NCBI GenBank assembly: GCA_964648665.1
Contig: CAZYOA010000004.1
Location: 52,894-116,893, forward strand
Direction: 5' to 3'
From: an uncultured Planctomycetales bacterium
GTDB lineage: Bacteria; Omnitrophota; Gorgyraeia; Zapsychrales; Aceulaceae
Length of the DNA: 64,000 bases
Made by a program: the position numbers and the translations under genes. The notes beneath the pieces are model-generated. The model did not search any database. It was not told the origin of the DNA and was given only the letters and a program-made list of their open reading frames with translations. This document shows positions 29,127 through 63,686 of the stretch, in pieces. How positions within the stretch are numbered: position 1 is the first letter of the stretch; each line of letters starts with the position of its first letter.

Positions 29127-29144
29127 AAACTTAAGGATAGATTT

Positions 29145-32813: not shown

Positions 32814-32824
32814 AGGAGAGGGTT

Positions 32825-33193: not shown

Positions 33194-33202
33194 GAGAATA
33201 AG

Positions 33203-33562: not shown

Positions 33563-33581
33563 GAAACGTTATATTTTAAGA

Positions 33582-41651: not shown

Positions 41652-42020
41652 TTAGTTTTTTAGAAAAATCTTTATTTTTTCTAATAGAATTGTTAAATCA
41701 ACAGGTTTAATGAGGTAGTCATCTGCGCCGACATCGTTACCAATTTCGATGTCTTTTTCTTTATCGCGAGAAGTTAGAAGAATAATAGGAATGTTTTTGT
41801 GTTTTGGATCATTCTTGAGAAGTTGGCAAAGATTGTATCCGTTAATGATTGGCATCATAACGTCTAGAATAATGAGGTCTGGATATTTATCCATGGCCAT
41901 TTGAAGACCATCGGCAGCTTTTGTTGCAGATAAAACAGTGTATCCATTTTCTGGAAGCTTGGTTGCTAAAAGTTTTGTTTGAACAGGATCATCATCAATA
42001 ATTAAAATCTTTTTTATCAT
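41652..42020 (-). CDS. stand-alone response regulator receiver (divergent from the GAF-ANTAR gene)
   Basis: It has a complete REC (LIIDDDPV, IILDVMMP, LTSR, IKPV). Confidence 0.8.
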   Translation of the reverse strand: MIKKILIIDDDPVQTKLLATKLPENGYTVLSATKAADGLQMAMDKYPDLIILDVMMPIINGYNLCQLLKNDPKHKNIPIILLTSRDKEKDIEIGNDVGADDYLIKPVDLTILLEKIKIFLKN

Positions 42021-43404: not shown

Positions 43405-43432
43405 TTGACAAATCCTGAGAATATTGTATATT
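43405..43432 (+). promoter_or_regulatory. sigma70 promoter for the glutamine-synthetase leader (TTGACA - 16 nt - TATATT)
   Basis: The -35 is ttgaca (43405-43410) and the -10 is tatatt (43427-43432). The predicted TSS lies a few nt before the first attenuator hairpin. Confidence 0.45.
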
Positions 43433-43445: not shown

Positions 43446-43496
43446 GGGCAATGATGTCCGCTTAAATCAATGAAGATTTTAAGCGGATTTTTTATT
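43446..43496 (+). promoter_or_regulatory. ANTAR-type attenuator unit 1: dual hexaloop hairpins overlapping an intrinsic terminator
   Basis: Hairpin P1 is GGGC-AAUGAU-GUCC (43446-43459), a hexaloop with A1/G4. Hairpin P2 is AAAUC-AAUGAA-GAUUU (43464-43479), also a hexaloop with A1/G4. The competing terminator is ccgcttaaa/tttaagcgg (43458-43486) followed by attttttatt. Confidence 0.55.
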
Positions 43497-43560
43497 GGGC
43501 AATGATGTCCGACAGTTTTCTCGACGATGTTTCTTGGGAAAGGTCGGATTTTTTTGTTTT
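43497..43560 (+). promoter_or_regulatory. ANTAR-type attenuator unit 2: repeat of the P1 hexaloop hairpin followed by terminator
   Basis: It is an exact repeat of GGGCAATGATGTCC (43497-43510). The terminator stem is tccgac/gtcgga (43508-43548) followed by tttttttgtttt. A second hexaloop hairpin is not obvious. Confidence 0.45.
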
Positions 43561-43566
43561 AAATTT

Positions 43567-43634
43567 GGGCAACGACGTCCTCAAGAAAAGCTAGCGGTGG
43601 CATGTTGTTTAGGCTTTAACTTGAGGATTTTTTT
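43567..43634 (+). promoter_or_regulatory. ANTAR-type attenuator unit 3: P1-like hexaloop hairpin followed by long terminator hairpin
   Basis: P1 is GGGC-AACGAC-GUCC (43567-43580). The terminator is tcctcaag/cttgagga (43578-43627) with an internal aaagc/gcttt helix, followed by tttttttaag. Confidence 0.45.
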
Positions 43635-43700: not shown

Positions 43701-45797
43701 ATGAAAAAAGAAAGAAAAATACAAACAGTTGCTGATTTCTTCGGCGAAAACGTATTTACATTAAAGACGATGCGTAATTATCTTTCAGAGAAGGCGCATA
43801 AATCTTTAAGTCAAACAATTGAAACTGGAGGCATGCTCGATCCTTCTATTGCAGATGAAGTTGCTGATGCGATGAAGACTTGGGCTGTTTCAAAAGGGGC
43901 AACACATTTTACACATTGGTTTCAGCCTTTAACGGGGACAACAGCAGAAAAGCATGATTCTTTTATCACGCCAGATGGAGAAGGTGGGGTTGTTTTGAAA
44001 TTTTCTGGAAAAGAATTAATTCAAGGTGAACCAGACGCATCAAGTTTTCCATCTGGAGGTCTTCGTCCAACATTTGAAGCGCGTGGATATACAGGATGGG
44101 ACCCAACAAGCCCTGCCTTTATTAAGGAAGGTCCTGAAAGTGCGACACTTTGTATTCCAACATATTTTGTTGGTTGGCATGGAGAAGCTTTAGATAAGAA
44201 AACACCACTTTTGCGCTCTATGAATGCATTGTCAAAGCAAGTATGTCGTTTAGGGGAATTGTTTGGAATTAAATCTAAGGGAAAACAGTCGTATGTAACA
44301 TTAGGTGGCGAGCAAGAGTATTTTTTAATTGACCGAGAATATTACTATGACAGGATTGACCTTATTCAAACAGGGCGAACATTGTTTGGAAAAGAGCCTG
44401 CAAAACATCAACAAATGTCTGATCATTATTTTGGAGCAATTAAAAGCCGAATTATGGGATTCATGGAAGAGTTTGATCGCGAGATGTGGAGAATGGGAAT
44501 TCCCGCAAAGACTCGACACAATGAAGTAGCTCCTGCTCAATTTGAGGTTGCTCCAGTTTTTGAGAGTCTTAATTTAGCTGTTGATCATAATATGATTTGT
44601 ATGGAAATTGCTCAAAAGGTAGCAGAAAAACATGGATTTGTTTGTCTTCTTCATGAAAAGCCTTTTGCTGGTGTTAATGGTTCAGGAAAGCATAACAATT
44701 GGGCGATTGTAGGTCCAGATGGCAAGAATTGGCTTGCTCCAGGAGACAATCCTCATGAGAATGCAAAGTTTTTAGTTGTGCTTTGTGCTGTTATTAAAGC
44801 CGTTGATAAGTATGCAGGAATGCTGAGAGTTTCGATTGCGTCAGCAGGAAATGATCACAGATTAGGTTCTCATGAAGCGCCACCTGCAATTATTTCTATC
44901 TTTTTAGGTGATCAACTTACAGATATTATTAAACAAATTGAAAATGGTGGTGCAAAAACATCTAAAAAAGGCGGAGTTTTAGAAATTGGTGTTGATTCTC
45001 TTCCTACGTTACCGAGAGATGCAACAGATCGCAACAGAACATCACCGTTTGCTTTTACAGGTGCAAAGTTTGAGTTTCGAGCTGTAGGGTCTAATGCAAG
45101 CTTGGCTGGACCGAACATTGTATTAAATACGATTGTTGCCGATGTTTTAGGCGGAATGTGTGAAACATTAGAAAAAGATAAAAAAGCTAAGAAAGATTTT
45201 AATGAGTCTATTCAGAATCTTTTAAAGACCATTATCAAAGAACATAAAAAAGTTATTTTTAATGGAGATAATTATACTCAAGATTGGGTAAAAGAAGCAA
45301 AGAAAAGAGGGCTTCCAAATCTAAAGAATACAGCAGAAGCTTTGGAGATTCTAAAGGATCCTAAAATTCCAGCTTTATTTGAGAGGCAAAAAGTTTTAAC
45401 AAGAAAAGAATTAAAATCTCGATATGAAGTTTATAAAGAAACATATGAGACTATTCTTGACTTTGAGGGACGCCTTTCAATTGATATGGCAAAAACAATG
45501 ATTCTTCCTGCTGCTGTCGAGTATCAGAATCAGTTAGCTGAGACAATCAAGAGTGTTGAGTCTGTGAATAAGACAAAATCAATAGCAACGCGTAAGCTTC
45601 TTAAAGAAATTACAAAGCAGGCAGAACTAGCTTTAGTTTTAATTGAGAAATTAGAGAGTGTTGTTAAAAAGGGAGATGGAGTAAAAACAAAAATAGCTAT
45701 GGAGAGATTACGTGAACCGGTTGATGCGCTAGAAGGATTGGTTCCTGTAGATATTTGGCCGCTTCCATCTTATGCTGAAATGTTGTTTATGCTTTAA
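43701..45797 (+). CDS. glnN: glutamine synthetase type III
   Basis: At 698 aa it shows GSIII family N-terminal and catalytic-region conservation ([20 protein letters not shown]..., NGSGKHNNW). An RBS (aaaggagg) is present. Confidence 0.85.
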
Positions 45798-45810
45798 TTT
45801 AGGAAAACTA

Positions 45811-46515
45811 ATGATTCTTTTTTTAAAACATATCGATATTGAAGGTCCTGGAATTTTTGAGAATCTTTTTGAAAAAGAAGGTTTTGATATAAAGGTTATT
45901 GATCTCGATAAAAACAGTGTGATGCCTGAAGATTCTTCGGGCATCAAAGCTGTTGTTATTTTAGGCGGACCGATGAATGTTTATCAGGAGGATGAGCATT
46001 CTTTTCTTAAGGATGAGAATAATTTTATTCAAATGCTTATTAAGAAGAAAATTCCTTGCTTAGGGATTTGTTTGGGTGCTCAGCTTTTGGCTAAAGCGCT
46101 TGGAGCAAAGGTAAGAAAGTCATCTGTTAGAGAGATTGGCTTTCATGATGTCTGCTTAACAGAGGATGGGTTAGAAAATCCACTTTTTGAGGGTCTTGGA
46201 TATTCTATGAAAGCTTTTCAATGGCATGAAGATACATTTGATATACCAAAAAAAGGAATGCTCTTAGCTGAATCTATGGGGTGTGAGAATCAAGCATTTT
46301 ATTTTGGTGAGAATGTTTATGGATTGCAGTTTCATGTTGAGGTTGATGGCCCTATGATTGAGAACTGGATGAAGACTTATTGGAATATTGAAGATATTTC
46401 TAAAGATAAAAAAGCTCAAGAAATTGTTAAAGAGTATGATAAAATTAAGTCTACATTTGATTCTCAAGCAAATATAATTTGTAAGAATTTTGTGAAGATT
46501 ATTAGAGAAAAGTAA
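45811..46515 (+). CDS. class I glutamine amidotransferase-like protein (stand-alone GATase1)
   Basis: The catalytic Cys is in GICLGAQLL and a His is in LQFHVE. The start is taken at ATG 45811 (RBS aggaaa), not the longer ORF that overlaps glnN. Confidence 0.7.
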   Translation: MILFLKHIDIEGPGIFENLFEKEGFDIKVIDLDKNSVMPEDSSGIKAVVILGGPMNVYQEDEHSFLKDENNFIQMLIKKKIPCLGICLGAQLLAKALGAKVRKSSVREIGFHDVCLTEDGLENPLFEGLGYSMKAFQWHEDTFDIPKKGMLLAESMGCENQAFYFGENVYGLQFHVEVDGPMIENWMKTYWNIEDISKDKKAQEIVKEYDKIKSTFDSQANIICKNFVKIIREK

Positions 46516-46554
46516 TATTCTTTTAAGATTTAATGCATAAAAAATAGGCAAATA

Positions 46555-48240
46555 ATGAAAAAAATAAGAATCGCATTAGCACAAATCAATACTATTGTTG
46601 GTGATCTTTCTGGAAATTCTAAAAAGATCTTAAGCTTTGTTGATATTGCACGTCAGATTGATAGCGATATTGTTATTTTTCCAGAGCTTGCTATTACAGG
46701 TTATCCTCCTGAAGACTTACTTTTAAAGAAGTATTTTGTTGATGACAATAAAAAAGAGCTTCGTCTTTTGGCATCTAAAATAAAAGATATAACAGCTGTT
46801 GTTGGATTTGTAGATTGTGATCGTAATAAAAATCTTTACAATGCTGCGGCTGTTATTGCTAATGGAAAGATTAAGGGAGTTTACGCAAAGCAATGTCTTT
46901 CGAATTATGGTGTTTTTGATGAAAAGCGCTATTTCTTAAAAGGCGATGAAAACTTTATCTTTTCTTTAAATGGAATTGGTTTTGAAATAAGTATTTGTGA
47001 AGATATTTGGGATGAAAACGGATTGTGTGTTAAGCAGGCAAAAAGTGATGCTCAGGTGCTTCTTAACCTTTCTGCTTCCCCCTATCATTCTGGAAAAGCT
47101 CGACAACGCCAAATGCTTTTATCGAAAAGAGCAAAACAAAGAAAATCATTTGTTTGCTATTGCAATCTTGTTGGCGGACAAGATGAACTTGTTTTTGACG
47201 GAATGAGCGCGATTGTTGATTCTGATGGCAAGACTATGGCTGTAGGTCGACAATTTGAAGAAGATTTGATTGTTACTGACATTGATATTGATGAAAAAAA
47301 GAAAATAAGATCAAAATGTGTTTGCACAATAAAACAAAAGACATCAGAAGAGAAAGTTTTTATTAAGTTAAAAAAGAATAAGAAATTAAGCTCTTGTGAA
47401 GAAATTTATAAGGCTCTTGTTTGCGGTACCCAAGATTATATTTTAAAGAACGGATTTAAGAAAGTTGCTCTTGGTATAAGTGGCGGAATTGACTCTGCTT
47501 TAGTTGCGATCATTGCAGCTGATGCTTTAGGAAAAGAAAATGTATTAGGTGTTTCAATGCCATCTCAACACACATCGAAATCTACACAAGCTGATGCTAA
47601 GAGGCTTGCGAAAAATCTTGGGATTGCCTTTCTCGAGATACCGATTAAGCAAACTTACCAGGCGTATATCGCAACTTTGAAAAAACAGTTTGCAGGCCAA
47701 AAAGAAAATATTGCTGAAGAAAATTTACAGGCACGTATTCGAGGAAATATTTTGATGGCTCTTTCTAATAAGTTTGGATATTTGGTTTTAACGACGGGAA
47801 ATAAAAGTGAAATTTCTGTTGGATATTGTACTCTTTATGGAGATATGGCAGGAGGTTTTGCACCAATTAAAGATGTTCTAAAAACGAAAGTTTATGATTT
47901 GGTAAAATATCGAAATCAAGAAGAAGGATCAAATTTAATTCCAAAAAGCATTATTAAGCGCCCTCCAACAGCGGAACTTAGAAAAGGACAAAAAGATCAG
48001 GATAGCCTTCCTCCGTATGATGTCTTGGATTCGATTTTAGAGGCCTACGTGCAAGGAGATTTAAGTATAAAGTCTTTAGAGAAAAAGAAAATTAGCATTA
48101 AGCTTACTAAGAAAATTATTGGACTTGTTGATCGCATGGAATATAAGCGTAGACAAGCACCATTGGGCGTTAAAATTACTTCTAAAGCTTTTGGTAAAGA
48201 TCGACGTTTACCGGTTATTAATAAATATACGGAAAAGTAA
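46555..48240 (+). CDS. nadE: glutamine-dependent NAD+ synthetase (CN-hydrolase + NAD synthetase domains)
   Basis: It has an N-terminal nitrilase-like domain (IALAQINT, catalytic C in ISICEDIW). The C-terminal PP-loop is GISGGIDSA. Confidence 0.9.
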   Translation: MKKIRIALAQINTIVGDLSGNSKKILSFVDIARQIDSDIVIFPELAITGYPPEDLLLKKYFVDDNKKELRLLASKIKDITAVVGFVDCDRNKNLYNAAAVIANGKIKGVYAKQCLSNYGVFDEKRYFLKGDENFIFSLNGIGFEISICEDIWDENGLCVKQAKSDAQVLLNLSASPYHSGKARQRQMLLSKRAKQRKSFVCYCNLVGGQDELVFDGMSAIVDSDGKTMAVGRQFEEDLIVTDIDIDEKKKIRSKCVCTIKQKTSEEKVFIKLKKNKKLSSCEEIYKALVCGTQDYILKNGFKKVALGISGGIDSALVAIIAADALGKENVLGVSMPSQHTSKSTQADAKRLAKNLGIAFLEIPIKQTYQAYIATLKKQFAGQKENIAEENLQARIRGNILMALSNKFGYLVLTTGNKSEISVGYCTLYGDMAGGFAPIKDVLKTKVYDLVKYRNQEEGSNLIPKSIIKRPPTAELRKGQKDQDSLPPYDVLDSILEAYVQGDLSIKSLEKKKISIKLTKKIIGLVDRMEYKRRQAPLGVKITSKAFGKDRRLPVINKYTEK

Positions 48241-48329
48241 AAAAAGTTATTTAATAGTTGTAAGATTGTAAAAAAATATTAAAATGGATAAAAAATTACA
48301 GAAAAAGAAATAAAGAAGGATTTTGTTAA

Positions 48330-48512
48330 AGCAAAAAGAGGAAAATCTATCGCTATATTATTAATGATGTTGAGAAAGTATTGATAACGAAAGCTCTTGA
48401 GCAAGCGTTTGGCAGTCAAGCCTTAGCTTCTAAAATTCTTGGAATCAATCGAAATACAATTTGTTCTAAGATTAAAAAATTAAAAATAAAAGTGAATCAA
48501 TTTAAGATATGA
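48330..48512 (+). CDS. Fis-family HTH mini-ORF (Fis/NtrC C-terminal DNA-binding helix-turn-helix), possibly a functional mini-Fis or a relic of a sigma54 activator
   Basis: The frame is open from 48330 and translates to ...INDVEKVLITKALEQAFGSQALASKILGINRNTICSKIKKLKIKVNQFKI. This aligns with the E. coli Fis C-terminus (LYELVLAEVEQPLL...[22 protein letters not shown]). There is no in-frame ATG, only TTG/ATT candidates. Its TGA stop overlaps the gltB ATG (ATGA) in a translational-coupling arrangement. Confidence 0.4.
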   Translation, partial: SKKRKIYRYIINDVEKVLITKALEQAFGSQALASKILGINRNTICSKIKKLKIKVNQFKI

Positions 48513-51500
48513 GTAACAATTTTATGATGAAAAAACAAGGAATGTACGATCCTCGTTTCGAGCATGATAGCTGTGGTGTTGGCTTTGTGGTTAACATCAA
48601 AGGAAAAAGAAATCATGATATTATTCGAAATGGTATTAAAATTCTAGAAAATCTTACGCATCGTGGAGCCACAGGATCTGATCCTTTAACAGGAGATGGA
48701 GCCGGTATTTTAGTTCAAATTCCAGATGATTTTTTTAGGAAAGAATGTCCGAAGGTTAACATTAATCTTCCTGAAGAAGGAGGTTATGGCGCTGGTATTG
48801 TTTTTCTTCCAAAAGATTTAGAGGAGCGCAATCTTTGTGAGGAATGGCTTGAGCAAATTATTCATCAGGAGGGGCAGAAATTCTTAGGGTGGAGAAATGT
48901 TCCTTGTGATAATAGTAAAATTGGGCATGTTGCGCGATTAGCAGAGCCAGAATTTAAGCAGATTTTTATTGGCAGAGGTGATAATACAAAAGAAGAAGGT
49001 GCTTTTGAGCGTAAGCTTTATGTGATAAGAAAGTTGATTGAGAAGAAAGTCAGAGATTCTCAGATTCAGCAAAAACATTTTTTTTATGTCTGTAGTCTCT
49101 CTTCAAAAACGATTGTTTATAAGGGTCAGTTAATGGCTGAGCAGGTTAATGGATTTTATACAGATTTAGCAGATCCTTTATTTGTTTCTTGCTTGGCTAT
49201 GGTGCATTCTCGTTATAGTACAAATACATTTCCAACATGGGCGTTAGCTCATCCGTATCGCGTTATTGCACATAATGGTGAGATTAATACATTGCGTGGA
49301 AATATTAATTGGATGCATGCTCGAGAAATGCAGTTTATTAGTGAACTTTTTGGAGAAGAAGATACAAAGAAAATTTTACCAATTATTACACCTAATGCGA
49401 GTGATTCTGCAACGTTTGATAATGTTTTAGAAATGCTGACGCTGTGTGGGAGATCATTGCCGCACGCTGTTATGATGATGATTCCAGAGGCTTGGAGTGG
49501 GCATGAGAGTATGAGTGATAAAAAGAAAGCTTTTTATGAATATCATTCAAGTATTATGGAGCCATGGGATGGGCCGGCTTCGATTGGTTTTACTGATGGA
49601 AGATATGTTGGCGCTGTATTAGACAGAAACGGACTCCGTCCATCAAGATTTTTGCTTACAAAAGACGACATGATTATTATGGCTTCTGAAACAGGAGTTT
49701 TGCCTGTTAGTCCGGATAACGTTTTGAAAAAAGGACGTCTTCAGCCAGGGCGAATGTTCTTAGTTGATACTCAAGAGGGACGGATTATCGATGATGATGA
49801 ATTAAAAGATTTTTATGCGACACAAAATTTGTATGAAGAATGGATTAAAGAAAACTTAGTAGATTTAGAATCTCTTCCGAAACCGAGAGTGTCTCATCGT
49901 ACTGATGAAAAAACATTGCTAGAGAGACAAAGAGCGTTTGGCTATACCTTGGAAGATCTAAAAATTATTCTTTATCCTATGGTTGCCGACGGAAAAGAAG
50001 CAACGGGATCTATGGGAGAGGATACTCCTCTAGCTGTCTTATCAAGAAAGCCGCGACTTTTATATACATATTTTAAACAACTTTTTGCACAAGTTACAAA
50101 TCCTCCAGTTGATGCTATTCGTGAAGAAATTGTTATGGCTGAGGATGTTTTGCTTGGAGCAGAGCGAAATCTTCTTAAGGAAACTCCACAGCATATTCAG
50201 AGATTAAAATTAAAAAGACCAATTCTTGTTAATGATGATTTAGAGAAAATTCGTGAAATTAAGAAGCCAGGTCTTCAAAATGTGACATTGTCGATTTTGC
50301 TAGAAAGAAATAGTGGTCCAGAGAATATTGAAGAAGCATTAGAAAGTGTTTTTAAGAAAGCTGATGAATCTATTGAGCAGGGCAAAACGATTATTATTCT
50401 TTCAGATCGAGGTATTGATAAAAAGCATGTTGCTATGCCAGCGTTGTTGGCTTGCGCAGGACTTCATCATCATCTTATCCGCCGAGGAACGCGAACAAAG
50501 GTGAGTATTGTTTTAGAGACAGGTGAAGCTAGAGAAATGCATCATTTTGCAACATTGATTGGATATGGAGCAAATGCAATTAATCCTTATCTAGTTCTTG
50601 AAACTATTGAGTCAGAATTTAAAAAAGGATCTTATCCAAGTGATTTAATATTTGAAAAGATTCAAGAAAACTTTTTGTCATCAACGCGAAAAGGATTGTT
50701 TAAGGTTATTTCAAAAATGGGAATTTCAACGATTCAGTCGTATTGTGGAGCTCAAATTTTTGAATGTGTTGGATTAGGCAAAGAAATTGTTGATAACTAC
50801 TTTGAAGCAACACCATCTCGCATTGGCGGTATTGGTGTTGTAAAAGTTGCTGAAGAAATGTTTTTGCGACACGATGCTGCTTATCCAAAAGATCAAATGC
50901 AAGAGACTATGCTTGATGGTGGTGGAAGTTATGCCTGGCGAAAAGATAGCGAACATCATCAGCTAAGTCCAGAGGCGATTGCAATTTTACAGAATTCTGT
51001 TCGAACGGGTGATTATCAGATGTATAAGAAGTTTGCAGATATTGTAAATAATTATCAGACAAATCTTGCGACAATTCGAGGTCTTTTAAAATTTAAAAAG
51101 GGAAAATCAATTTCTATTGACGAAGTAGAGCCTGCTGTGGAGATTGTAAAACGATTTGCAACGGGTGCGATGAGTTATGGATCGATTTCAAGAGAAGCTC
51201 ATGAAACGCTTGCTATCGCGATGAATCGTTTAGGCGGTTTTTCAAATACAGGAGAGGGTGGCGAGGATCCGGAGCGTTTTAAGCCATTAGCTAATGGAGA
51301 TTCAAAGTGTAGTCGTATTAAGCAAGTTGCTCAGGGACGTTTTGGCGTTACGATTGAATATTTAGCGAATGCGGATCAACTTCAGATTAAAATGGCACAA
51401 GGAGCAAAGCCCGGCGAGGGAGGACAACTTCCAGGGCATAAAGTTAGCCAGGAAATTGCAAATATACGTCATACAACAAAAGGTGTTGGACTTATTTCTC

Positions 51501-53056
51501 CTCCACCTCATCATGATATTTATTCGATAGAAGATTTAGCGCAACTTATTCATGATTTAAAGAATTCAAATCCAAAGGCAGATGTTAGTGTAAAGCTTGT
51601 TTCGGAAATCGGTGTTGGTACGATTGCTGCTGGTGTTTCTAAGGGTAAGGCAGATCATCTTTTGATTAGTGGTTTTGGAGGAGGCACAGGTGCTTCTCCG
51701 CAGACTTCTATAAAACACGCAGGTCTTCCTTTAGAGTTGGGATTAGCTGAGACGCAGCAAGTTTTAGTGATGAATGATCTTAGAGGACGTATTCGCGTTC
51801 AGGCTGATGGACAAATGCGCACAGGTCGAGATGTTGCTATTGTTGCAATGTTAGGAGCTGATGAGGTTGGATTTGCAACAGTTGCTCTTGTGACGATGGG
51901 ATGCGTTATGTTACGTAAATGCCATTTGAATGCTTGCTCTGTTGGAATTGCAACTCAAGATCCTAATCTAAGAAAGAATTTTAGAGGAACGCCAGAGCAT
52001 GTTGTAAATTATTTTCTTTTTGTTGCTGAAGAATGTCGAGAGATTATGGCAGAACTTGGGTTTAAAACATTTAAAGAAATGATTGGTCGTGTCGATATGC
52101 TTGAAACGCAAGAGGTGGTTGATCATTGGAAGGCTGATGGATTAGATCTGACACATATTTTACACAAACCAGATGTGCCAAAAGATGTTATTACCTCTCA
52201 CCAAGGTGTTCAAGATCATGGGTTAGAAAAAGCATTAGATCAGAAAATAGTAAAGCTTGCAAAAAATGCTATCGAAAACAAACAAGCTATTAAGATTGAA
52301 TTACCAATTCAAAATATTAATCGAACTGTTGGAACAATTTTAAGTCATGAGATTGCAAAGCGATATGGGCTTGAAGGTCTTCCAGATAAAACAGTTCAAG
52401 TTCTTTTTAAAGGGTCTGCTGGTCAAAGTTTTGGTGCATTTTTATCAAAGGGAGTTAAGTTTGTTCTTGAAGGTGATGCTAATGATTATTTAGGTAAGGG
52501 TTTATCTGGTGGAAAAATTACAGTTATCCCTTCCCGGGAGGCAACTTTTGTTCCTGAAGAGAATATTATCGTTGGAAATGTTATTCTTTATGGTGCGATT
52601 GAAGGAGAGGTTTTTATTCGCGGACTTGCTGGTGAGCGATTTTGTGTTCGTAATAGTGGTGTGCATGCTGTTGTTGAAGGCATTGGTGATCATGGATGTG
52701 AATATATGACTGGTGGACGTGTTGTTGTTTTAGGTTTAACAGGAAGAAATTTTGCAGCTGGCATGAGTGGTGGAATTGCATATATTTTAGATAAAGAAAA
52801 AGTTTTTAGTCGACATTGTAATATGACGATGGTAGATTTGGAAGAAGTTGTAGAAAGCGAAGATGTTAAAGAGCTTAAAAGTTTAATTGAAAAACATCTC
52901 AAAGAAACAAAAAGTGGTGTTGCTAAAAATGTTCTAGATGCTTGGCCAGAAGTGTTAAAAGATTTTGTTAAGGTTTACCCAAAAGATTACAGGTGTGTTG
53001 TAGAAGAAGCTAAGGCGATAAAAAATCAGGAGCAAGAGGCAAAAAGTCATGGGTGA
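48509..53056 (+). CDS. gltB: glutamate synthase large subunit
   Basis: At 1515 aa it has an N-terminal class II amidotransferase Cys (FEHDSCGVGFV). Central FMN/Fe-S domains and a C-terminal GXGXG domain follow. Confidence 0.95.
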   Translation: MSNNFMMKKQGMYDPRFEHDSCGVGFVVNIKGKRNHDIIRNGIKILENLTHRGATGSDPLTGDGAGILVQIPDDFFRKECPKVNINLPEEGGYGAGIVFLPKDLEERNLCEEWLEQIIHQEGQKFLGWRNVPCDNSKIGHVARLAEPEFKQIFIGRGDNTKEEGAFERKLYVIRKLIEKKVRDSQIQQKHFFYVCSLSSKTIVYKGQLMAEQVNGFYTDLADPLFVSCLAMVHSRYSTNTFPTWALAHPYRVIAHNGEINTLRGNINWMHAREMQFISELFGEEDTKKILPIITPNASDSATFDNVLEMLTLCGRSLPHAVMMMIPEAWSGHESMSDKKKAFYEYHSSIMEPWDGPASIGFTDGRYVGAVLDRNGLRPSRFLLTKDDMIIMASETGVLPVSPDNVLKKGRLQPGRMFLVDTQEGRIIDDDELKDFYATQNLYEEWIKENLVDLESLPKPRVSHRTDEKTLLERQRAFGYTLEDLKIILYPMVADGKEATGSMGEDTPLAVLSRKPRLLYTYFKQLFAQVTNPPVDAIREEIVMAEDVLLGAERNLLKETPQHIQRLKLKRPILVNDDLEKIREIKKPGLQNVTLSILLERNSGPENIEEALESVFKKADESIEQGKTIIILSDRGIDKKHVAMPALLACAGLHHHLIRRGTRTKVSIVLETGEAREMHHFATLIGYGANAINPYLVLETIESEFKKGSYPSDLIFEKIQENFLSSTRKGLFKVISKMGISTIQSYCGAQIFECVGLGKEIVDNYFEATPSRIGGIGVVKVAEEMFLRHDAAYPKDQMQETMLDGGGSYAWRKDSEHHQLSPEAIAILQNSVRTGDYQMYKKFADIVNNYQTNLATIRGLLKFKKGKSISIDEVEPAVEIVKRFATGAMSYGSISREAHETLAIAMNRLGGFSNTGEGGEDPERFKPLANGDSKCSRIKQVAQGRFGVTIEYLANADQLQIKMAQGAKPGEGGQLPGHKVSQEIANIRHTTKGVGLISPPPHHDIYSIEDLAQLIHDLKNSNPKADVSVKLVSEIGVGTIAAGVSKGKADHLLISGFGGGTGASPQTSIKHAGLPLELGLAETQQVLVMNDLRGRIRVQADGQMRTGRDVAIVAMLGADEVGFATVALVTMGCVMLRKCHLNACSVGIATQDPNLRKNFRGTPEHVVNYFLFVAEECREIMAELGFKTFKEMIGRVDMLETQEVVDHWKADGLDLTHILHKPDVPKDVITSHQGVQDHGLEKALDQKIVKLAKNAIENKQAIKIELPIQNINRTVGTILSHEIAKRYGLEGLPDKTVQVLFKGSAGQSFGAFLSKGVKFVLEGDANDYLGKGLSGGKITVIPSREATFVPEENIIVGNVILYGAIEGEVFIRGLAGERFCVRNSGVHAVVEGIGDHGCEYMTGGRVVVLGLTGRNFAAGMSGGIAYILDKEKVFSRHCNMTMVDLEEVVESEDVKELKSLIEKHLKETKSGVAKNVLDAWPEVLKDFVKVYPKDYRCVVEEAKAIKNQEQEAKSHG

Positions 53057-54476
53057 AGTAAAAGGATTTTTAAAATACGATAGAGAGCACTTTGAAAAGC
53101 AATCTATTGCTGAACGTCTTAAGCATTGGAATGAATTTTATATTTATCCTGAAGAAAGCTTTTTAAAACAGCAAGGCGCACGATGTATGGATTGCGGAAT
53201 TCCTTTTTGTCAGTGGGGCTGTCCGATTGGAAATATTATTCCGGATTGGAATGATCTTGTTTATAAAGATCGATGGCAAGAAGCTTTTGAGCGATTACAG
53301 AAAACAAATAATTTTCCAGAGTTTACTGGGCGTGTTTGCCCGGCGCCATGCGAGAATTCTTGTGTTCTAGGCATCACAGATCCTGCGGTAACAATTAAGA
53401 ATATTGAGCTTTCTATTGTTGAAAAAGCATATAAAGAGAATTGGATTAAGCCGCGTGCGCCAAAAGTGCGTAGCGGTAAGAAAGTTGCCGTTGTTGGTTC
53501 TGGTCCGGCGGGGCTTGCATGTGCTGATCAGCTTAATCAAATGGGTCACAACGTTGTTGTTTACGAGAAGAATGAAGTTGTGGGCGGACTTTTAGCTTTA
53601 GGCATTCCAGATTTTAAATTGGAAAAAAAGATTATTGAAAGACGAGTTGAGCGCATGAAAAAAGAGGGTGTTCAATTTAAAATAAATGTTAATGTTGGTG
53701 TTGATGTTGATCGCAAAGAGCTTCAAAAGAAGCATGATGCGATTGTTTTATCTGGTGGAGCCGAGAATCCGAGAGATCTCAGTGTTGAAGGACGTGATTT
53801 AAAAGGCGTTTATTTTGCAATGGAGTTTCTAGCACAGCAAAATCGTGTGAATAGAGGCGTTAAGGTTGATGAAGGTGATCGTATTAATGCTGCGGGTCAG
53901 AATGTTGTTGTTTTAGGTGGAGGAGACACGGGAGCTGATTGTGTGGGAACATCAAATCGACAAGGAGCGTCATCTGTAAAACAATTTGAACTTCTACCAG
54001 ATTTGCCAAAAGAAAGAACGCAAGATAACCCTTGGCCTTATTGGGCATTTATTAAAAGAGTGTCGACTTCGCATGAAGAGGGCGTTGAGCAGGATTATTG
54101 TGTAATGACTAAGAAATTTAGTGGGGAAAATGGTGTTTTAAAAAATCTTCATGCGGTTCGTGTTGAATTTGGAGATAAAGATCCTGACACAGGCAGATGT
54201 CCTATGAAGGAAGTGCCAGGATCAGAGTTTACTGTATCTGTTGATAGGGTATTTTTAGCAATGGGGTTCTTAGGGCCTCAAAAAATAGGACTTTTGGAAA
54301 ACTTTGGCGTCGACCTTGATCTTAGGGGAAATGTTAAGACAGATGATCAAGGCATGACTAGCGTCTCTGGAATATTTGCTGCAGGGGATATGCGTCGTGG
54401 TCAATCTTTGGTTGTTTGGGCTATTTATGAAGGACGAACAACAGCGCAAAATGTTCATCAATATTTAGCAAAATAA
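53049..54476 (+). CDS. gltD: glutamate synthase small subunit (NADPH)
   Basis: It has Fe-S Cys clusters (CMDCGIPFC, CPAPCENSC). FAD and NADPH Rossmann motifs (VAVVGSGPAG, VVVLGGGDTG) are also present. It overlaps gltB by 8 nt. Confidence 0.9.
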   Translation: MGEVKGFLKYDREHFEKQSIAERLKHWNEFYIYPEESFLKQQGARCMDCGIPFCQWGCPIGNIIPDWNDLVYKDRWQEAFERLQKTNNFPEFTGRVCPAPCENSCVLGITDPAVTIKNIELSIVEKAYKENWIKPRAPKVRSGKKVAVVGSGPAGLACADQLNQMGHNVVVYEKNEVVGGLLALGIPDFKLEKKIIERRVERMKKEGVQFKINVNVGVDVDRKELQKKHDAIVLSGGAENPRDLSVEGRDLKGVYFAMEFLAQQNRVNRGVKVDEGDRINAAGQNVVVLGGGDTGADCVGTSNRQGASSVKQFELLPDLPKERTQDNPWPYWAFIKRVSTSHEEGVEQDYCVMTKKFSGENGVLKNLHAVRVEFGDKDPDTGRCPMKEVPGSEFTVSVDRVFLAMGFLGPQKIGLLENFGVDLDLRGNVKTDDQGMTSVSGIFAAGDMRRGQSLVVWAIYEGRTTAQNVHQYLAK

Positions 54477-54500
54477 TGGGTTTGTAGACCATTATATTTC

Positions 54501-54528
54501 TTGACGGATACCTGATTAATGGTATTAT
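54501..54528 (+). promoter_or_regulatory. sigma70 promoter for carAB (TTGACG - 16 nt - TATTAT)
   Basis: The -35 is ttgacg (54501-54506) and the -10 is tattat (54523-54528). It lies 60 nt upstream of the carA ATG. Confidence 0.45.
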
Positions 54529-54587
54529 TATGTCTAAGTTTTAAAATAACTTTTCTTTAACACTCATCTTTTAAGTTGTAATCTTAC

Positions 54588-55685
54588 ATGAAAAAAGCAA
54601 TAGTATATTTGGAAGACGGAACGATTTTTGAAGGTCGATCTATCTTCTCCTGTGGAGAGAGTGCAGGTGAGATGGTTTTTAATACTTCTATGAGCGGTTA
54701 TCAAGAAATTTTAACCGATCCTTCCTATGCTGGTCAAATTGTCACCATGACATATCCATTAATCGGAAATTATGGGGTCAATGAAGATGATGTTGAATCA
54801 AACAAGATTCACGTTAAAGGTTTTATTGTTAAAGAGTTTGCCCGTCGATTTTCTAATTTTCGTGCTACAAAATGTTTGATGGAGTATTTAAAAGAAAATA
54901 ATATCATAGCCATTGAGAATGTTGATACGAGAGCGCTTACAAAGCATTTGCGTGTCCGTGGAGCTATGAAAGGTATTATTTCAACTGAAGATTTTGATCC
55001 TAAAAGTTTGGCTGAAAAGATTAAAAAAGTTCCAGATATGGAAGGTAGCGATTGGGTTAAGGAGGTTACGACAAAAGAAAAGTATATTTGGAATAAGGGA
55101 GAAACTTGTGATCTTAAGGTTGCGGTTATTGATTGTGGTGTTAAATTTAATATTTTAAGAATCCTTGCTGAGCTTGGTTGCGAAGTTCATGTCTTTCCGT
55201 CTACGGTTACAGCTGAAGAAATTCAAGCTATTAATCCAGGCGGACTTTTTGTTTCTAACGGCCCAGGAGATCCTGCGGCCGTTTCTTATGTTGTCGAGAC
55301 GGTGAAAAAGTTTTTAGGAAAGCTTCCAATATTTGGCATTTGTTTGGGAAACCAGATTTTAGGATTGGCTTTGGGTGGAAAAACATACAAGCTAAAGTTT
55401 GGACATAGAGGAGCAAATCATCCTGTTAAAGATTTACAAGAAAATAAAATTTCAATTACATCTCAAAATCATGGTTTTTGTGTGGACATGGAAAGCTTGA
55501 ATGCCGACGATGTTGAAGTTACACATATTAATTTAAATGATAAAACGGTTGAAGGGATTGCACATAAAAAGTATCCGCTTTTTTCTGTTCAGTATCATCC
55601 AGAGGCTTCTCCTGGTCCTCATGATGCCCGATACTTATTTGATAGATTTATTAAAATGATGAAGGATTTTCATGCCAAAGCGTAA
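54588..55685 (+). CDS. carA: carbamoyl-phosphate synthase small (glutaminase) subunit
   Basis: At 365 aa it has a CPSase small-chain N-domain and GATase1 with the catalytic GICLGNQ. Confidence 0.9.
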
Positions 55686-58600
55686 TGATATAAAAAAGAT
55701 TTTGTTGATTGGTTCGGGTCCAATTATTATTGGACAAGCGTGTGAATTTGATTATTCAGGAACACAGGCTTGCAAGGCGCTGAAAGAAGAGGGCTATGAA
55801 GTTGTGTTGATTAATTCAAATCCAGCGACGATTATGACTGATCCTGAGATTTCGGATGCGACATATGTCGAGCCTTTGACCCTTGAGTTTGTTGAACGTG
55901 TCATTGAAAAAGAAAGACCGGATGCACTTTTGCCAACGCTGGGAGGACAAACAGGGTTGAATCTGGCGATGAAAGCTTCTGAAAAAGGTATTTTAGAAAA
56001 ATATAATGTTGAATTGATTGGGGCACCTTATGATGTTATTAAGAAAGCAGAAGATCGAGAGTGTTTTAAAGAAGCTGTATTGAAAGTTGGTCTTGAAGTG
56101 CCAAGAAGTGCTTTTGCTCATACAATGGATGAAGCTCGCAAATCTGCAAAGAAAATAGGATTTCCTTTGATTGTTCGACCAAGCTATACCTTGGGCGGAA
56201 CGGGGGGAGGACTTGTTTACAACAAAGAAGATCTTGAGAAAACAGCTTTCTTAGGCCTTGAAAGTAGTATGAATAATGAGGTTTTGATTGAAGAGTCAAT
56301 TGAAGGATGGAAAGAGTATGAGCTTGAAGTTATGCGAGACTGCAAAGATAATGTTGTTATTATTTGCTCTATTGAAAATATTGACGCCTTAGGTGTTCAT
56401 ACAGGAGATAGCATTACCGTGGCTCCGGCTCAGACTTTATCTGACAAAGAATATCAAAGAATGCGTAATCAAACGCTTGCATTGATTCGTGAAATTGGCG
56501 TGGAAACAGGTGGATGCAATGTTCAGTTTGCTGTGGACCCCGCAAACGGCCGCATTGTTGTTATTGAGGTTAATCCTCGTGTGTCTCGAAGCTCTGCCTT
56601 AGCATCAAAAGCAACAGGATTTCCAATCGCGAAATTTGCAGCTAAGCTGGCTGTTGGATATTCTTTAGATGAGATTCAAAACGATATTACAAGAGAAACA
56701 CCTGCTTCATTTGAACCTACCATTGATTATTGTGTAACCAAAATTCCAAGATTTACATTTGAGAAATTCCCTGAGGCTGGGGATGCCCTTGGTGTTTCGA
56801 TGAAGTCTGTTGGCGAGACGATGGCTATTGGACGGACATTTAAAGAGTCTTTGCAAAAAGGATTGCGCGGTCTTGAGATAGGTCATATTGGGCTTGATAA
56901 TAAGTTAAACTTTGAAGATATTTCTGATGAAAAAATTATTCAAAGATTAAAGGTGGCAAATGCGTCTCGAATTTTTTACATTAAATATGCGTTTCAAAAA
57001 GGAATGAGTGTTGAAGAAATCTTTGAAATGACAAAAATTGATCCATGGTTTCTTTCAAATATTTCTGAATTAGTTGAGTTTGAAAATAATCTTAAGAGCG
57101 AAGCGATTAATAATAAAGAAATCAGTGAAGAATCTTTAAAACAAGCTAAGCAGTGGGGATTTAGCGATGCGCAGTTAGCCCAAATTTTTTCAATAACAGA
57201 AAAAGAAATGCGTACATTTAGAAAAGAAAAAGGTATTTGTGTGGTCTTTAAGCTAGTTGATACCTGTGCTGCTGAATTTGAAGCGTATACACCATATTAT
57301 TATTCGACTTATGAAGATCAGGCAGAAAGTAAAGTCGAAGATTCAAAGGAAAATAAAAAGAAAAAGATTATGATTTTAGGTGGCGGTCCGAATCGAATTG
57401 GACAAGGCATTGAATTTGACTATTGTTGTTGCCATGCGTCATTTGCTTTAAAAGATATAGGTTGTGAAACAATTATGGTTAATTCAAATCCGGAGACGGT
57501 TTCAACGGATTACGATACTTCAGATCGTCTTTATTTTGAACCGTTAACGTTTGAAGATGTAATGAATATCGTTGAAGTAGAAAAACCTGATGGCGTGATT
57601 GTTCAATTTGGCGGACAAACTCCTCTTAATCTTGCACATGCTTTAGATGAGGCTGGCGTACCAATTATTGGAACTACAGTAGAGTCGATTGATCTTGCGG
57701 AAAATAGAGAAAAGTTTTCAGAATTTATTTCTAAGCTTGGACTTTCTCAGCCAGAGAATGGATCAGCTTTTTCTGCTGATCAAGCCATCGAGATTGCACA
57801 AAGAATTGGTTATCCGGTTTTAGCTAGACCGTCATATGTTTTAGGCGGCAGAGCTATGAAAATTGTTTATGACAAGAAATCTCTTTTAGAATTTATTGAA
57901 GAAGCTAAAGATGTTTCGCAAGGACATCCAATTCTTATTGATAAGTTTATTGAGGATGCGATTGAAGTTGATGTTGATGGAATTTCTGACGGAGAAGATG
58001 CTGTTGTTGCCGGGATGATGGAGCATATTGAGAATGCGGGTATTCATTCAGGTGATTCGGCGTGTGTTTTGCCACCTCATACATTGAGCCCTAGATTGAT
58101 TGAACAAATTAGAAAAAATACATGTGATATTGCAAAAGGATTAGGCGTTGTTGGTCTTTTAAATATTCAGTTTGCTATTAAAGGTGACATTATTTATGTT
58201 CTAGAAGTTAATCCTAGAGCGTCTCGAACAGTTCCTTTTGTTAGTAAGGCAACGGGTGTTCCTTTAGCAAAAATTGCTTCGCAGATTATGGTGGGTAAAA
58301 AAATATCTGAATTTAAATTTGTTGATATTGAAAGTCTTGAATATATTTCAGTTAAAGAATCTGTTTTACCTTTTTCGCGTTTTTCTGGAGTCGATATTGT
58401 TCTTGGTCCCGAGATGAAATCAACTGGAGAGGTTATGGGAATTGATAGTACCTTTGGCGCCGCGTTTGCTAAAGCACAGGCTGCTGCTGGTCAATCTTTA
58501 CCTCAGGATGGAAAAATTTTCTTAAGTGTTAATGATTGCGATAAACGTAACATTGCGTTTTTAGCTAAGAAGCTTGTAGATATGAATTTTGATCTTCTTT

Positions 58601-58911
58601 CAACCAAGGGAACAGCTCGCGTGCTTAAAAAAAGCGGTATTGATGTTCAATCTATTGGTAAGGTTGGCGAAGAAAAGAATAATTTGCTTAATTCAATTAA
58701 GAAAAATAAGATTAATTTGGTTATCAACACGCCATCTGGAAAGCGAAGCCAATCAGATATGAGAGCGATTCGGGCAGCTGCAATTTTGCACAATGTTCCG
58801 TGCATTACGACGATCCAGGGTGCATGGGCTGCAATTAATGGTATTGAATCTAGTAAAGAAAAAGTTTTTTCTGTTAAATCATTGCAAGAATACTATAAGA
58901 AGGAAGTTTAA
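55672..58911 (+). CDS. carB: carbamoyl-phosphate synthase large subunit
   Basis: At 1079 aa it has duplicated ATP-grasp halves and a C-terminal MGS-like domain. It overlaps carA by 14 nt. Confidence 0.95.
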
Positions 58912-58913
58912 CT

Positions 58914-60287
58914 GTGTGTGGAGTCGTTGGAGTCTCAAATCATAGCGAAGCAGCAAAGATAGTTTTCTTGAGCTTATATGCATTACAGCATAGAGGAGAA
59001 GAATCTTGCGGTATTGTTTCTTTTGATGGAAAAAAAGTTCATATGCAAAAAGCAAGAGGCTTGGTGGCTGATTGCTTTAATGAGAACATTGTTGAAGGTC
59101 TTAAAGGAAGCTTTGCGATAGGCCATACGCGATATTCAACAACAGGATCAAGCAATGCAAAAAATATTCAACCATTTTTAGCGACACACAAAAATAGACC
59201 AATTGTTATTGCGCATAATGGAAATTTAACAAATACAGAAGATCTCTGTGATGAACTTGAAGAACAAGGTTCTATTTTTCAGACGACAATGGATTCTGAG
59301 GTTATTGTTCATCTTTTGGCTAAAACAAGAAACGGTGATATCAAAACTTGGATCAAGCAGGCGTTGATGCGCTTGAAGGGAGCTTTTTCTCTTGTTTTTA
59401 TGATTGGCGATGTTTTAGTTGGAGCGCGGGATCCTTTTGGATTTCGACCTTTATGTTTGGGAAAAAAAGATGATGCGTATATTTTGGTTAGCGAGACGTG
59501 TGCTTTGGATTTGATTGGTGCTGAGCTTGTTCGTGAGATTGAACCTGGAGAAATTATTCTTATAAAAGATGGCAAGATCGAGAGTGCTTATTTGGAAAAG
59601 AAAGAAAAGAAAGCGCATTGTATTTTTGAAAATATTTATTTTGCTCGCCCAGACAGTCATATCTTCGATGATAATGTTTATTTGGTGCGAAAACGCTTAG
59701 GTCGTCAGCTTGCCAAGGAGTATCCAGTTGATGCCGATTTTGTTATGGCGATTCCGGATTCTGGAAGTTATGCAACGGTTGGGTATGCAGAACAATCTGG
59801 TCTTCCTTTAGAGATCGGCATGATTCGAAATCATTATATTGGTCGAACGTTTATTCAGCCAAGTCAATTTTTGCGAGAATTTAGAGTGCGTGTGAAGCTA
59901 AATCCAATTCGAGATGTTTTAAAAGGAAAGCGCGTTGTTGTCGTGGAAGATTCTATTGTGCGCGGCACAACAAGTCGAAGTCGAGTTGAAGAACTTAGGC
60001 GTGCGGGAGCTAAAGAAATTCATTTTAGAGTGACATGTCCACCTATTACATTTCCTTGTTTTTATGGGATCGATTTCCCAACTAAGGAAGAATTGATTGC
60101 ATCTAATAAAAGTATTCAAGAAATTGCTGATTTTATCAAAGCCGATTCTTTGGAATATCTAAGTCTCGACGGTATGTTAAATGTTATGAAAGATTCTAAT
60201 GCATTTTGTCATGCGTGTTTTGATGGAAAATATTCGGAGCAGATTTCAAAGAATCAAAGTAAATACTTGCTTGAAAAAAGTTGTTAA
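58914..60287 (+). CDS. purF: amidophosphoribosyltransferase (glutamine PRPP amidotransferase), GTG start
   Basis: The N-terminus MCGVVGV has the Ntn Cys at position 2. A PRT domain follows. It starts 3 nt after the carB stop. Confidence 0.9.
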   Translation: MCGVVGVSNHSEAAKIVFLSLYALQHRGEESCGIVSFDGKKVHMQKARGLVADCFNENIVEGLKGSFAIGHTRYSTTGSSNAKNIQPFLATHKNRPIVIAHNGNLTNTEDLCDELEEQGSIFQTTMDSEVIVHLLAKTRNGDIKTWIKQALMRLKGAFSLVFMIGDVLVGARDPFGFRPLCLGKKDDAYILVSETCALDLIGAELVREIEPGEIILIKDGKIESAYLEKKEKKAHCIFENIYFARPDSHIFDDNVYLVRKRLGRQLAKEYPVDADFVMAIPDSGSYATVGYAEQSGLPLEIGMIRNHYIGRTFIQPSQFLREFRVRVKLNPIRDVLKGKRVVVVEDSIVRGTTSRSRVEELRRAGAKEIHFRVTCPPITFPCFYGIDFPTKEELIASNKSIQEIADFIKADSLEYLSLDGMLNVMKDSNAFCHACFDGKYSEQISKNQSKYLLEKSC

Positions 60288-60331
60288 GATTTTAACGTAT
60301 AGCTTAAAAGTTTCAATGATAGGAATCATCT

Positions 60332-61936
60332 ATGAGTAAATTTATTTTTGTTACAGGCGGCGTTGTTTCAAGTCTTGGAAAAGGCATTGCTTCTGCTTCG
60401 ATCGGAAAGATGCTCGAGGACAGAGGATTGTCTACGACTACAATTAAATGTGATCCATATCTTAATGTTGATCCAGGAACCATGAGTCCTTTTCAACATG
60501 GAGAAGTTTATGTGACTGATGATGGCGCGGAAACAGATCTAGACTTGGGTCATTATGAACGCTTTACAAATGCCCGTGTTGGTAAGGATAGCAATATTAC
60601 GACAGGGAAAGTTTATTTCGCTGTTATTTCAAAAGAACGTAAAGGTGAGTATCTCGGGAAAACTGTTCAGATTATTCCTCATATCACAGATGAAATAAAA
60701 AATAGAATTAAGAAAGTTGCAAAATCTCGAGACGTGGATGTTACGATTGTTGAAATTGGTGGAACGATAGGTGATATTGAAAGTTTGCCATTTTTGGAAG
60801 CAATTCGACAGATGAAATGGGAAATAGGTTCAAGCTATTGCATTAATGTGCATGTGACATTGTTACCTTTTATTAAGTCTGCTGGTGAGCATAAAACGAA
60901 GCCAACGCAACATAGTGTAGGACGCTTGCGCGAAATTGGCATTGCTCCTGATATTTTATTATGTCGAACAGAAAAGCATATGACTAAAGATCAGAGGGAA
61001 AAGATTGCTCTTTTTTGTAGCGTTGATCGCGAAGCTGTTGTTGAAGCTATTGATGTTAAGCATATTTATGAAGTTCCGCTTTTGCTTAAGAAAGAGGGAT
61101 TGGATAATTTAATTCTAAGAAAATTAAATATTAAAAGGCCAGATAGTGATCTAAAAAGATGGAAAGATTATGTTGTAAAGCGATTAAAAAATCCTGCCAA
61201 AGAGGTCAAGATTTCTGTCGTTGGAAAATATATTTCATTGCCTGATGCGTATAAATCAATTTATGAAGCTTTAGTTCACGGTGGAATTTCAAATAATACT
61301 AAAGTTGTGATTAATAAAGTTGATTCTGAAGATATTGAAAAGAATAACGCAAAGAAATATCTTAAAGATTCTGATGGCATTCTTATTCCTGGTGGATTTG
61401 GAACTAGAGGCATTGAGGGAAAAATACGTGCCGTTCAATATGCTCGAGAAAATGATATTCCATTCTTCGGAATTTGTTTAGGAATGCAGATCGCATCGAT
61501 TGAATTTGCTCGCAATATGTGCGGATGTAAAGGAGCAAATTCAACAGAATTTGACAAAGGAACAAAGCATCCCATTATTAGTCTTTTGGAAGAACAGAAA
61601 AAGATAAAGAATATGGGAGCGACAATGCGACTAGGTGCGTATCCTTGTAAGTTGCAAAAGAAAACAAAAAGTTTTCAAGCTTATAAAAAAGAAGGCATAT
61701 CTGAAAGACATCGTCATCGTTATGAATTTAATGATGAATATCGAAAAACTTTTGAAAAAAAAGGTGTTGTCTTTTCAGGGATTAATATAAAGAAAAAGTT
61801 GGTTGAGATTCTTGAGCTTAAAAACCACCCATGGTTTGTAGCTTGTCAATTTCATCCTGAGTTTAAATCAAAACCAGACAAGGCGCATCCTTTGTTTCAG
61901 AGTTTTGTAGCTGCATCTTTGGCAAAGAGATCTTAA
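60332..61936 (+). CDS. pyrG: CTP synthase
   Basis: At 534 aa the N-terminus [19 protein letters not shown] is diagnostic. The C-terminal GATase has GICLGMQ. Confidence 0.95.
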
Positions 61937-63601: not shown

Positions 63602-63686
63602 GCGCGGGTGGCGGAATTGGTATACGCGCACGTTCGAGGGGCGTGTGGAGCAATCCGTGTGGGTTCAAGCCCCACCCCGCGCACCA
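63602..63686 (+). tRNA. tRNA-Leu (probable anticodon GAG), CCA encoded
   Basis: The acceptor stem is GCGCGGG/CCCGCGC, and the Leu-type D-arm (GGCGGAATTGGTATACGC) has a 3-bp D stem. There is a long variable arm and the T-arm is GTGGG-TTCAAGC-CCCAC, with discriminator A + CCA. Only one 7-nt anticodon loop fits (stem CACGU/GCGUG, loop UCGAGGG), which puts C rather than U at position 33. Confidence 0.7.

Follow-up and report, generated by a model that had tools for sequence, protein, structure and literature searches.

The regulons that coordinate ammonium uptake with glutamine synthetase (GS) and glutamate synthase (GOGAT), those of NtrC, GlnR/TnrA and NtcA, consist of dispersed operons that are controlled at transcription initiation. 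Here we describe a locus in which such genes are physically clustered behind an attenuated leader: a row of nine genes, from glnN (GS type III, GSIII) to pyrG, on the + strand at positions 43701–61936 of a 64 kb stretch of DNA from an uncultured Omnitrophota bacterium. The full stretch, not the row, is called the window. The locus shares the theme of those regulons and of the amtB–glnK pair, and relatives of the window keep amt–glnK at the head of the first of its two units; it differs in its clustering, in its attenuation and in the loss of amt–glnK from the window locus.

Control of nitrogen genes by ANTAR proteins is established (NasR, AmiR, EutV; Ramesh et al. 2012, PMC3369931), and the operons described there are the closest match to the locus. 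In both, the ANTAR protein is encoded beside its target, hairpins with A1/G4 hexaloops overlap an intrinsic terminator and the targets are drawn from P-II, ammonium transporter, glutamine and glutamate synthase genes. The present locus differs in its GAF-GAF sensor, a type called uncharacterised in that paper, in having three tandem single-hairpin/terminator units rather than one dual-hairpin unit, and in an operon that adds nadE and a stand-alone glutamine amidotransferase (GATase) and adjoins carAB–purF–pyrG. In Prevotella ruminicola 23, glnN-2 (GSIII) is clustered with gltBD, amtB, glnK, asnB and an unassigned amidotransferase, PRU_1973; the genes of this cluster are strongly co-induced depending on nitrogen supply, and pyrG and the pur genes are scattered (Kim et al. 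2017, PMC5552732). GSIII, gltBD, glutamine-using enzymes and an unassigned amidotransferase thus stand together in both bacteria, whereas the phylum and the regulator differ and, for Prevotella, no clustering of nadE, carAB or purF with these genes is reported. Literature searches aimed at the present gene combination found no description of it. Candidatus Aceula, to which the nearest relatives of the window belong, was described from Ace Lake with ammonia assimilation mentioned in passing (PMC8542988).

We read the row as two housekeeping operons that probably lie head to tail, each with its own promoter and with possible read-through from the first (U1) into the second (U2), and we give this reading a probability of roughly 0.6. 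The enzymes, one that makes glutamine and six systems that use its nitrogen, are ordinary; it is their conserved and thematically coherent layout that is unusual, a variation on the known ANTAR-controlled nitrogen-assimilation operon. Eleven related genomes were compared (loci L002, L003, L081/82, L096+L100, L097+L103, L098+L102, L099, L101, L104, L105 and L106).

Gene identities and active sites

The nine genes, located by open reading frame (ORF) listing, were identified from curated NCBIfam equivalog models (score against cutoff) and from Pfam domain architecture, as follows.

43701..45797, + strand: glnN, glutamine synthetase type III; Pfam GSIII_N (255 bits), Gln-synt_C and Gln-synt_C-ter
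45811..46515, + strand: GAT1, stand-alone class I glutamine amidotransferase, TM1158-like; Pfam GATase (84 bits)
46555..48240, + strand: nadE, glutamine-dependent NAD+ synthetase; NF010588, 717.8 bits against a cutoff of 479
48509..53056, + strand: gltB, glutamate synthase large subunit; NF008730, 1731 bits against 1047
53049..54476, + strand: gltD, glutamate synthase small subunit; TIGR01317, 679.8 bits against 447.7
54588..55685, + strand: carA, carbamoyl-phosphate synthase glutaminase subunit; TIGR01368, 531 bits against 307
55672..58911, + strand: carB, carbamoyl-phosphate synthase large subunit; NF003671, 1698 bits against 599
58914..60287, + strand: purF, amidophosphoribosyltransferase; TIGR01134, 517.5 bits against 350
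60332..61936, + strand: pyrG, CTP synthase; NF003792, 857 bits against 308

All the identities proposed in the first-pass annotation were borne out by the ORF listing and the curated hidden Markov models. The enzymes of the row either exceed their equivalog cutoffs well or show the full Pfam architecture, and a residue check found the amidotransferase nucleophiles or triads intact in all the glutamine-using enzymes. The glnN product (698 residues) carries all three GSIII domains in a protein of the length typical of the family (about 700 residues), and its orthologues occupy the same position in relatives at 69–89% identity. NadE joins an N-terminal nitrilase-type glutaminase domain (CN_hydrolase, 107.6 bits), with the glutaminase cysteine in ICEDIW, to an NAD_synthase domain (262.6 bits). 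GltB and GltD form an NADPH-type GOGAT, the large subunit with GATase_2, central, FMN and GXGXG domains and an amidotransferase cysteine in CGVGF behind a 21-residue propeptide, the small subunit with Fer4_20 and Pyr_redox domains. CarAB, PurF and PyrG combine above-cutoff equivalog scores with the amidotransferase nucleophile, which in PurF is the N-terminal cysteine, residue 2. In GAT1 the class I Cys–His–Glu triad is formed by Cys87 in the nucleophile elbow (G-x-C-x-G) of GICLG and by His175-x-Glu177 in FHVE.

The genes were said to have short or overlapping junctions, and most do (−14 to +44 bp, with an 8-nt overlap of gltB and gltD). The exceptions are nadE–gltB (268 bp, containing a decayed HTH_8 ORF) and gltD–carA (111 bp, containing a promoter), and GAT1 does not overlap glnN: a 234-residue database protein is identical to GAT1 read from 45811, so this start is likely and leaves a 13 bp gap after glnN.

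An attenuated leader and two promoters

The elements that would divide the row into units, together with the regulator gene, are as follows.

42150..43394, + strand: GAF-GAF-ANTAR RNA-binding regulator; Pfam GAF twice and ANTAR PF03861 (67.9 bits)
43405..43432, + strand: U1 promoter, sigma-70, TTGACA-16-TATATT, 11/12 consensus matches
43446..43634, + strand: three tandem attenuator units, each a GGGCAAYGAYGTCC hexaloop hairpin with its 3′ arm forming the base of an intrinsic terminator
54501..54528, + strand: U2 promoter, TTGACG-16-TATTAT with a TG extension, found by promoter scan and conserved before carA

Each GGGCAAYGAYGTCC unit has a 4-bp stem and a hexaloop whose first base is A and fourth base is G, and a U-tract follows the terminator. 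The pattern GGGC-AAYGAY-GTCC has three exact sites against 0.41 expected. Its GTCC arm is the base of every terminator stem (folds of −15.2, −22.8 and −18.5 kcal/mol for the three units), hairpin and terminator being mutually exclusive in the manner of ANTAR targets. When 14 units from 6 genomes are aligned, loop positions A1 and G4 are invariant; outside the 14-nt hairpin, the only conserved part, the terminators vary and give poor alignments. Some terminators carry a second loop of AATGAA/GATGAA type at the apex, which is not conserved. The triple-unit leader also heads U1 in L081, L096 and L098, and the U1 promoter aligns with the promoters of the orthologous leaders. The ANTAR protein is encoded immediately upstream of the leader, and its orthologues precede this operon in L081, L096, L098 and L099. 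The leader conforms to the ANTAR recognition rule as published and to the established link of ANTAR proteins to P-II, amt and glutamine/glutamate synthase genes (PMC3369931). Rfam scans of the cluster at gathering and permissive thresholds returned no known riboswitch, T-box, glutamine riboswitch or PyrR site.

The second promoter bears on how many transcripts the row yields. The first-pass annotation favoured several transcription units over one operon, and this has held up: the TTGACG/TATTAT element before carA is kept in every relative read, as TTGAC-N17-TAtanT at the same place in L100, L101, L003 and L103 and also in L104, L105 and L106. It is present even where carA does not follow gltD, and carA therefore has its own promoter whatever lies upstream. 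A terminator scan found none that is convincing in the intergenic gaps of the window, including those after nadE and gltD; the gltD–carA spacer folds into no more than a −6.4 kcal/mol hairpin (z −0.65), unlike L102, where a −32.9 kcal/mol terminator follows gltD, and the nadE–gltB spacer is unstructured. Because the nadE–gltB gap is just 16 bp in the closest genome (L096), nadE and gltB are likely to be co-transcribed. The most economical reading of these signals is that U1 would extend from the leader to gltD and U2 from carA to orf531, a membrane protein gene behind pyrG, with nothing to block read-through from one to the other.

Between the U2 promoter and carA lies a short, U-rich leader (54529–54587 in the window; likewise in L100, L101 and L104–L106) with small A/U hairpins, in which Rfam matched none of the known elements that respond to pyrimidines or arginine. 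In L102 (1950–2060), a strong terminator and a promoter are followed by three ANTAR-like hexaloop hairpins, GGGCAATGACGTCC, GGGCAATGAAGTTC and GGACAAAGAAGTTC, and then by a gene for a 546-residue Glu_synthase-domain protein; these hairpins show no obvious overlapping terminator and may reflect a different mode of ANTAR control.

On this basis we propose the following mechanism. U1 would be a nitrogen-assimilation operon, transcribed from the promoter at 43405 into the three ANTAR-type hairpin/terminator units, which the adjacent GAF-GAF-ANTAR protein would presumably open when nitrogen status demands. Transcription would then run through glnN, GAT1 and nadE and on into gltB and gltD, no terminator or convincing promoter lying between. 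U2 would start at its own promoter at 54501 and comprise carA, carB, purF, pyrG and the membrane protein gene. In this lineage, the 2.5–4 kb of unrelated genes usually found between U1 and U2 would have been lost, as would amt–glnK upstream of glnN. Given just the weak hairpin between gltD and carA, antiterminated U1 transcripts could plausibly enter U2 and add a nitrogen-dependent part to its expression. Together the two units combine, within 18 kb, the production of glutamine and its recycling to glutamate with the committed glutamine-dependent reactions that lead into NAD, carbamoyl phosphate, purines and CTP, a layout that would fit coordinated expression of the row.

Synteny, recurrence and the rival explanations

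An origin from a low-GC Firmicute or Clostridium, which 35% GC and the strong skew might suggest, is rejected, because GltD, GAT1 and PurF have their closest relatives in metagenome-assembled genomes (MAGs) of Candidatus Omnitrophota. PurF is 70–88% identical across the phylum (88% in Candidatus Aceula lacicola, 87% in GCA_028693815.1, 78% in Candidatus Aceula meridiana). A metagenome scan with NadE yielded one informative relative (L081/L082); the other 12 matches had nadE alone among the genes tested. A pyrG–orf531 fragment identical to the window occurs in JGI sample 3300031657.

Both modules keep their order among these relatives. U1 runs GAF-GAF-ANTAR gene, leader, a porin-like or other ORF in some genomes, amt, glnK, GS, GAT1, nadE, in some the HTH_8 gene, gltB and gltD; it is kept in L002, L003, L081, L096, L097 and L098. 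L099 has a type I GS here, again with GAT1 right behind it. The amt–glnK pair, sometimes duplicated or behind the porin-like ORF, directly precedes GS in nearly every relative that reaches this point; in L099 a CitMHS gene sits between the pair and GS. In the window, amt–glnK is absent between the leader and glnN and anywhere else in the 64 kb. U2 runs carA–carB–purF–pyrG, followed by rpe and a GGDEF/HisKA/FIST block, and is kept in all nine relatives that reach it (L003 and L100–L106; in L081, its start only). In seven of eleven sampled genomes (window, L096/100, L101, L003, L081, L097/103 and L098/102) the two units adjoin each other, usually 2.5–4 kb apart, and gltD and carA abut, at about 84–118 bp, only in the Aceula lineage (window, L096/100 and L101). 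The intervening DNA holds an opposite-strand SSF transporter gene and a TPR protein gene in L003, a PPDK_N-like 885-residue gene in L081 and L103, and in L102 the Glu_synthase-domain gene and small ORFs behind the strong terminator. In L104–L106, glpK/glpD precede carA in place of U1, and L002 has no U2 gene within 10 kb. The genes are thus not scattered and their order is kept within each module, whereas the juxtaposition of U1 and U2 that the continuous row had suggested is found in about two thirds of the sampled relatives.

The co-orientation of the nine genes is uninformative, because almost every ORF in the window (35% GC) shares the + strand, with GC skew positive throughout. The clustering itself is another matter. 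Under generous assumptions (12–20 glutamine-making or glutamine-using systems among 1000–2000 units per genome), a run of seven adjacent glutamine systems is expected ≤1e-10 times per genome. Among 80 gltD-anchored loci from many phyla, taken with 10 kb flanks, 65 have no other query gene within 10 kb and just 6 carry at least two further glutamine systems. The thematic clustering is far beyond chance, and its description as an unusual concentration is justified.

Comparable sets recur elsewhere. Three Planctomycetota MAGs (L067, L074 and L076) have (amt–PII–)glnN–gltB–gltD–nadE–carB(–carB–carA), with the full order amt–PII–glnN–gltBD–nadE–carB–carB–carA in L067 and similar orders in the others. 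An Anaerolineales MAG (L075, 4262–13353, minus strand) carries carA–guaA–hisH–hisF–carB–purF, divergent from an adjoining gltD; it is an independent cluster of glutamine amidotransferases whose members differ. Like the window, these loci place GOGAT beside several glutamine enzymes (nadE, carAB, purF, guaA, hisHF), in L067 with amt–PII–glnN upstream; they lack GAT1 and pyrG. With order and membership differing, inheritance of one block does not simply explain them, and they make the strongest case that GOGAT draws in other users of glutamine. A literature search found no description of them. In L067, a Pirellulales MAG, full-length carB genes (1066 and 1070 residues) stand in tandem before carA (13142–19566). 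A gltBD–asnB–purF–carAB cluster in Bacteroides, considered as a further parallel, is not counted as evidence: at the Bacteroidales locus examined (L059), gltBD is flanked by citrate synthase, EamA, GH3 and dNK genes.

Several observations weigh against a functional link between the two units or against ANTAR control of the row. U1 and U2 are not neighbours in 4 of the 11 relatives (L002 and L104–L106) and U2 has its own promoter, so their adjacency is dispensable. The non-glutamine flanks are equally syntenic (thiolase, DAO, DUF2148, VIT1 and REC genes upstream; rpe, GGDEF, HisKA and FIST genes downstream), which makes synteny within the phylum weak evidence for selection on the glutamine theme. 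Each leader unit has one clear, conserved hexaloop hairpin rather than an evident canonical, closely spaced pair (P1 and P2) of the kind that an ANTAR dimer recognises. Further ANTAR sites, which had been suggested for the internal gaps, are absent from those of the window in a search allowing up to two mismatches; the three leader sites were the only intergenic ones recovered, alongside two minus-strand coding matches at chance level. L003, alone among the relatives, places an ANTAR hairpin/terminator downstream of the conserved promoter and ahead of carA, so U2 can be wired into the ANTAR regulon.

Some weight attaches to a neutral origin, in which functionally independent operons came to touch after the intervening genes were deleted in a lineage with generally stable gene order, and the theme of the row as a whole says nothing about regulation or physiology outside the individual operons. 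The variable, unrelated inserts between gltD and carA in L003, L081, L103 and L102, the position of U2 behind glpK/glpD in L104–L106, the conserved promoter of carA and the equal conservation of the flanks all agree with it. Yet U2 alone joins three glutamine-amidotransferase systems from three pathways, Planctomycetota and Anaerolineales gather overlapping sets of glutamine enzymes near gltBD in other orders, an ANTAR attenuator precedes carA in L003 and the chance expectation is negligible; we regard a wholly neutral row as possible though doubtful. A stronger functional claim would be that an 'amide-nitrogen economy' layout has been selected, arising or being kept in several phyla (Omnitrophota, Planctomycetota and Chloroflexota), with GS/GOGAT and the committed glutamine steps to NAD, purines, pyrimidines and arginine dosed by a nitrogen-status attenuator through read-through or, in L003, through a dedicated ANTAR site. 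GAT1 would then always be co-translated with GS and act as its partner, either as a glutaminase or as a sensor of glutamine. We consider this unlikely. A single transcript of ~20 kb from the glnN leader to pyrG/orf531, under ANTAR control alone, would suit the co-oriented genes, the several overlapping junctions and the lack of a convincing intrinsic terminator in the internal gaps; it is very improbable in view of the near-consensus extended −10 promoter before carA, conserved in every relative examined even where carA is not behind gltD, and of the relatives with inserts, terminators or opposite-strand genes at the gltD–carA junction. There is still less to commend the idea that the genes are specialised paralogues serving one nitrogen-rich product or pathway. 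Enzymes of different pathways are unusually clustered, and the row includes an uncharacterised GATase and a membrane protein, but the scores are far above the equivalog cutoffs, PurF is conserved across the phylum always in this context, and the tailoring, transport or scaffold genes typical of biosynthetic clusters are missing.

If the layout of two adjoining operons is functional, it would be a compact natural case of one metabolite's supply wired to its demand, with the synthesis of glutamine, its recycling and the earliest committed steps that consume it on the way to NAD, purines, pyrimidines and arginine all placed behind an RNA switch that senses nitrogen; for uncultured Omnitrophota it yields a prediction that is testable in metatranscriptomes. 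If it is not functional, its use would be limited to that of a synteny marker for the phylum.

Small genes of the row and neighbouring features

Two small genes come with clear genomic hooks: a TM1158-like amidotransferase behind GS of either type and an approximately 70-residue Fis-type protein translationally coupled to gltB. GAT1 matches PDB 1o1y, the uncharacterised Thermotoga protein TM1158, at E 8.6e-39, with its GICLG and FHVE motifs aligned with GICLG and FHIE; this and the other nearest structure, 9xfs, are both uncharacterised. The sole clue to its role is its invariant place directly behind GS: GAT1 is immediately 3′ of GS in all relatives that cover the locus, including L099 (8481–10714), in which the GS is a type I GlnA of 501 residues rather than GSIII and GAT1 starts 14 bp after it. 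The pairing is thus independent of GS type.

The remaining genes and RNA features are as follows.

48284..48512, + strand: decayed small Fis-type HTH_8 gene (HTH_8, 42 bits); its stop overlaps the gltB start (ATGA)
61946..63541, + strand: orf531, polytopic membrane protein (531 residues) with a hydrophobic translation, 9 bp 3′ of pyrG
41652..42020, − strand: single-domain response-regulator receiver (REC), divergent neighbour of the ANTAR gene; Pfam Response_reg (92.6 bits)
3173–3326: 6S RNA (72 bits)
8248–8318 and 63602–63683: two tRNA genes, the second downstream of orf531

Intact HTH_8 orthologues of 71–72 residues, ATGA-coupled to gltB, occur in L081 (11735–11950) and L098 (12564–12782). 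Homology extends along the full length of the window copy, which requires two frame changes; as both fall in A-rich runs, it is either a pseudogene or the product of homopolymer errors in the assembly. The gene is absent in L096, L002 and L003. The gltBD genes next to it show a pattern of their own: GltB and GltD are only 57 and 62% identical to those of L096, though glnN, carA, carB, purF and pyrG of that genome are at 87–92%, and 69–77% identical in the more distant L101, L098 and L002. An exchange in situ between two gltBD types seems to have taken place, leaving the locus undisturbed.

At the other end of the row, orf531 has no Pfam or NCBIfam match. It is probably the last U2 gene in this lineage and lies outside the glutamine theme; orthologues stand behind pyrG in the Aceula lineage (L095; L100, 58% identity; L101, 39%, with a weak Glucos_trans_II match) and not in more distant relatives. 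The REC gene keeps its place in L081 (78% identity) and L096 (87%). At least eight stand-alone or embedded receiver domains paralogous to it lie at 19000–34000 of the window, which suggests a dense signalling or chemotaxis-like gene region.

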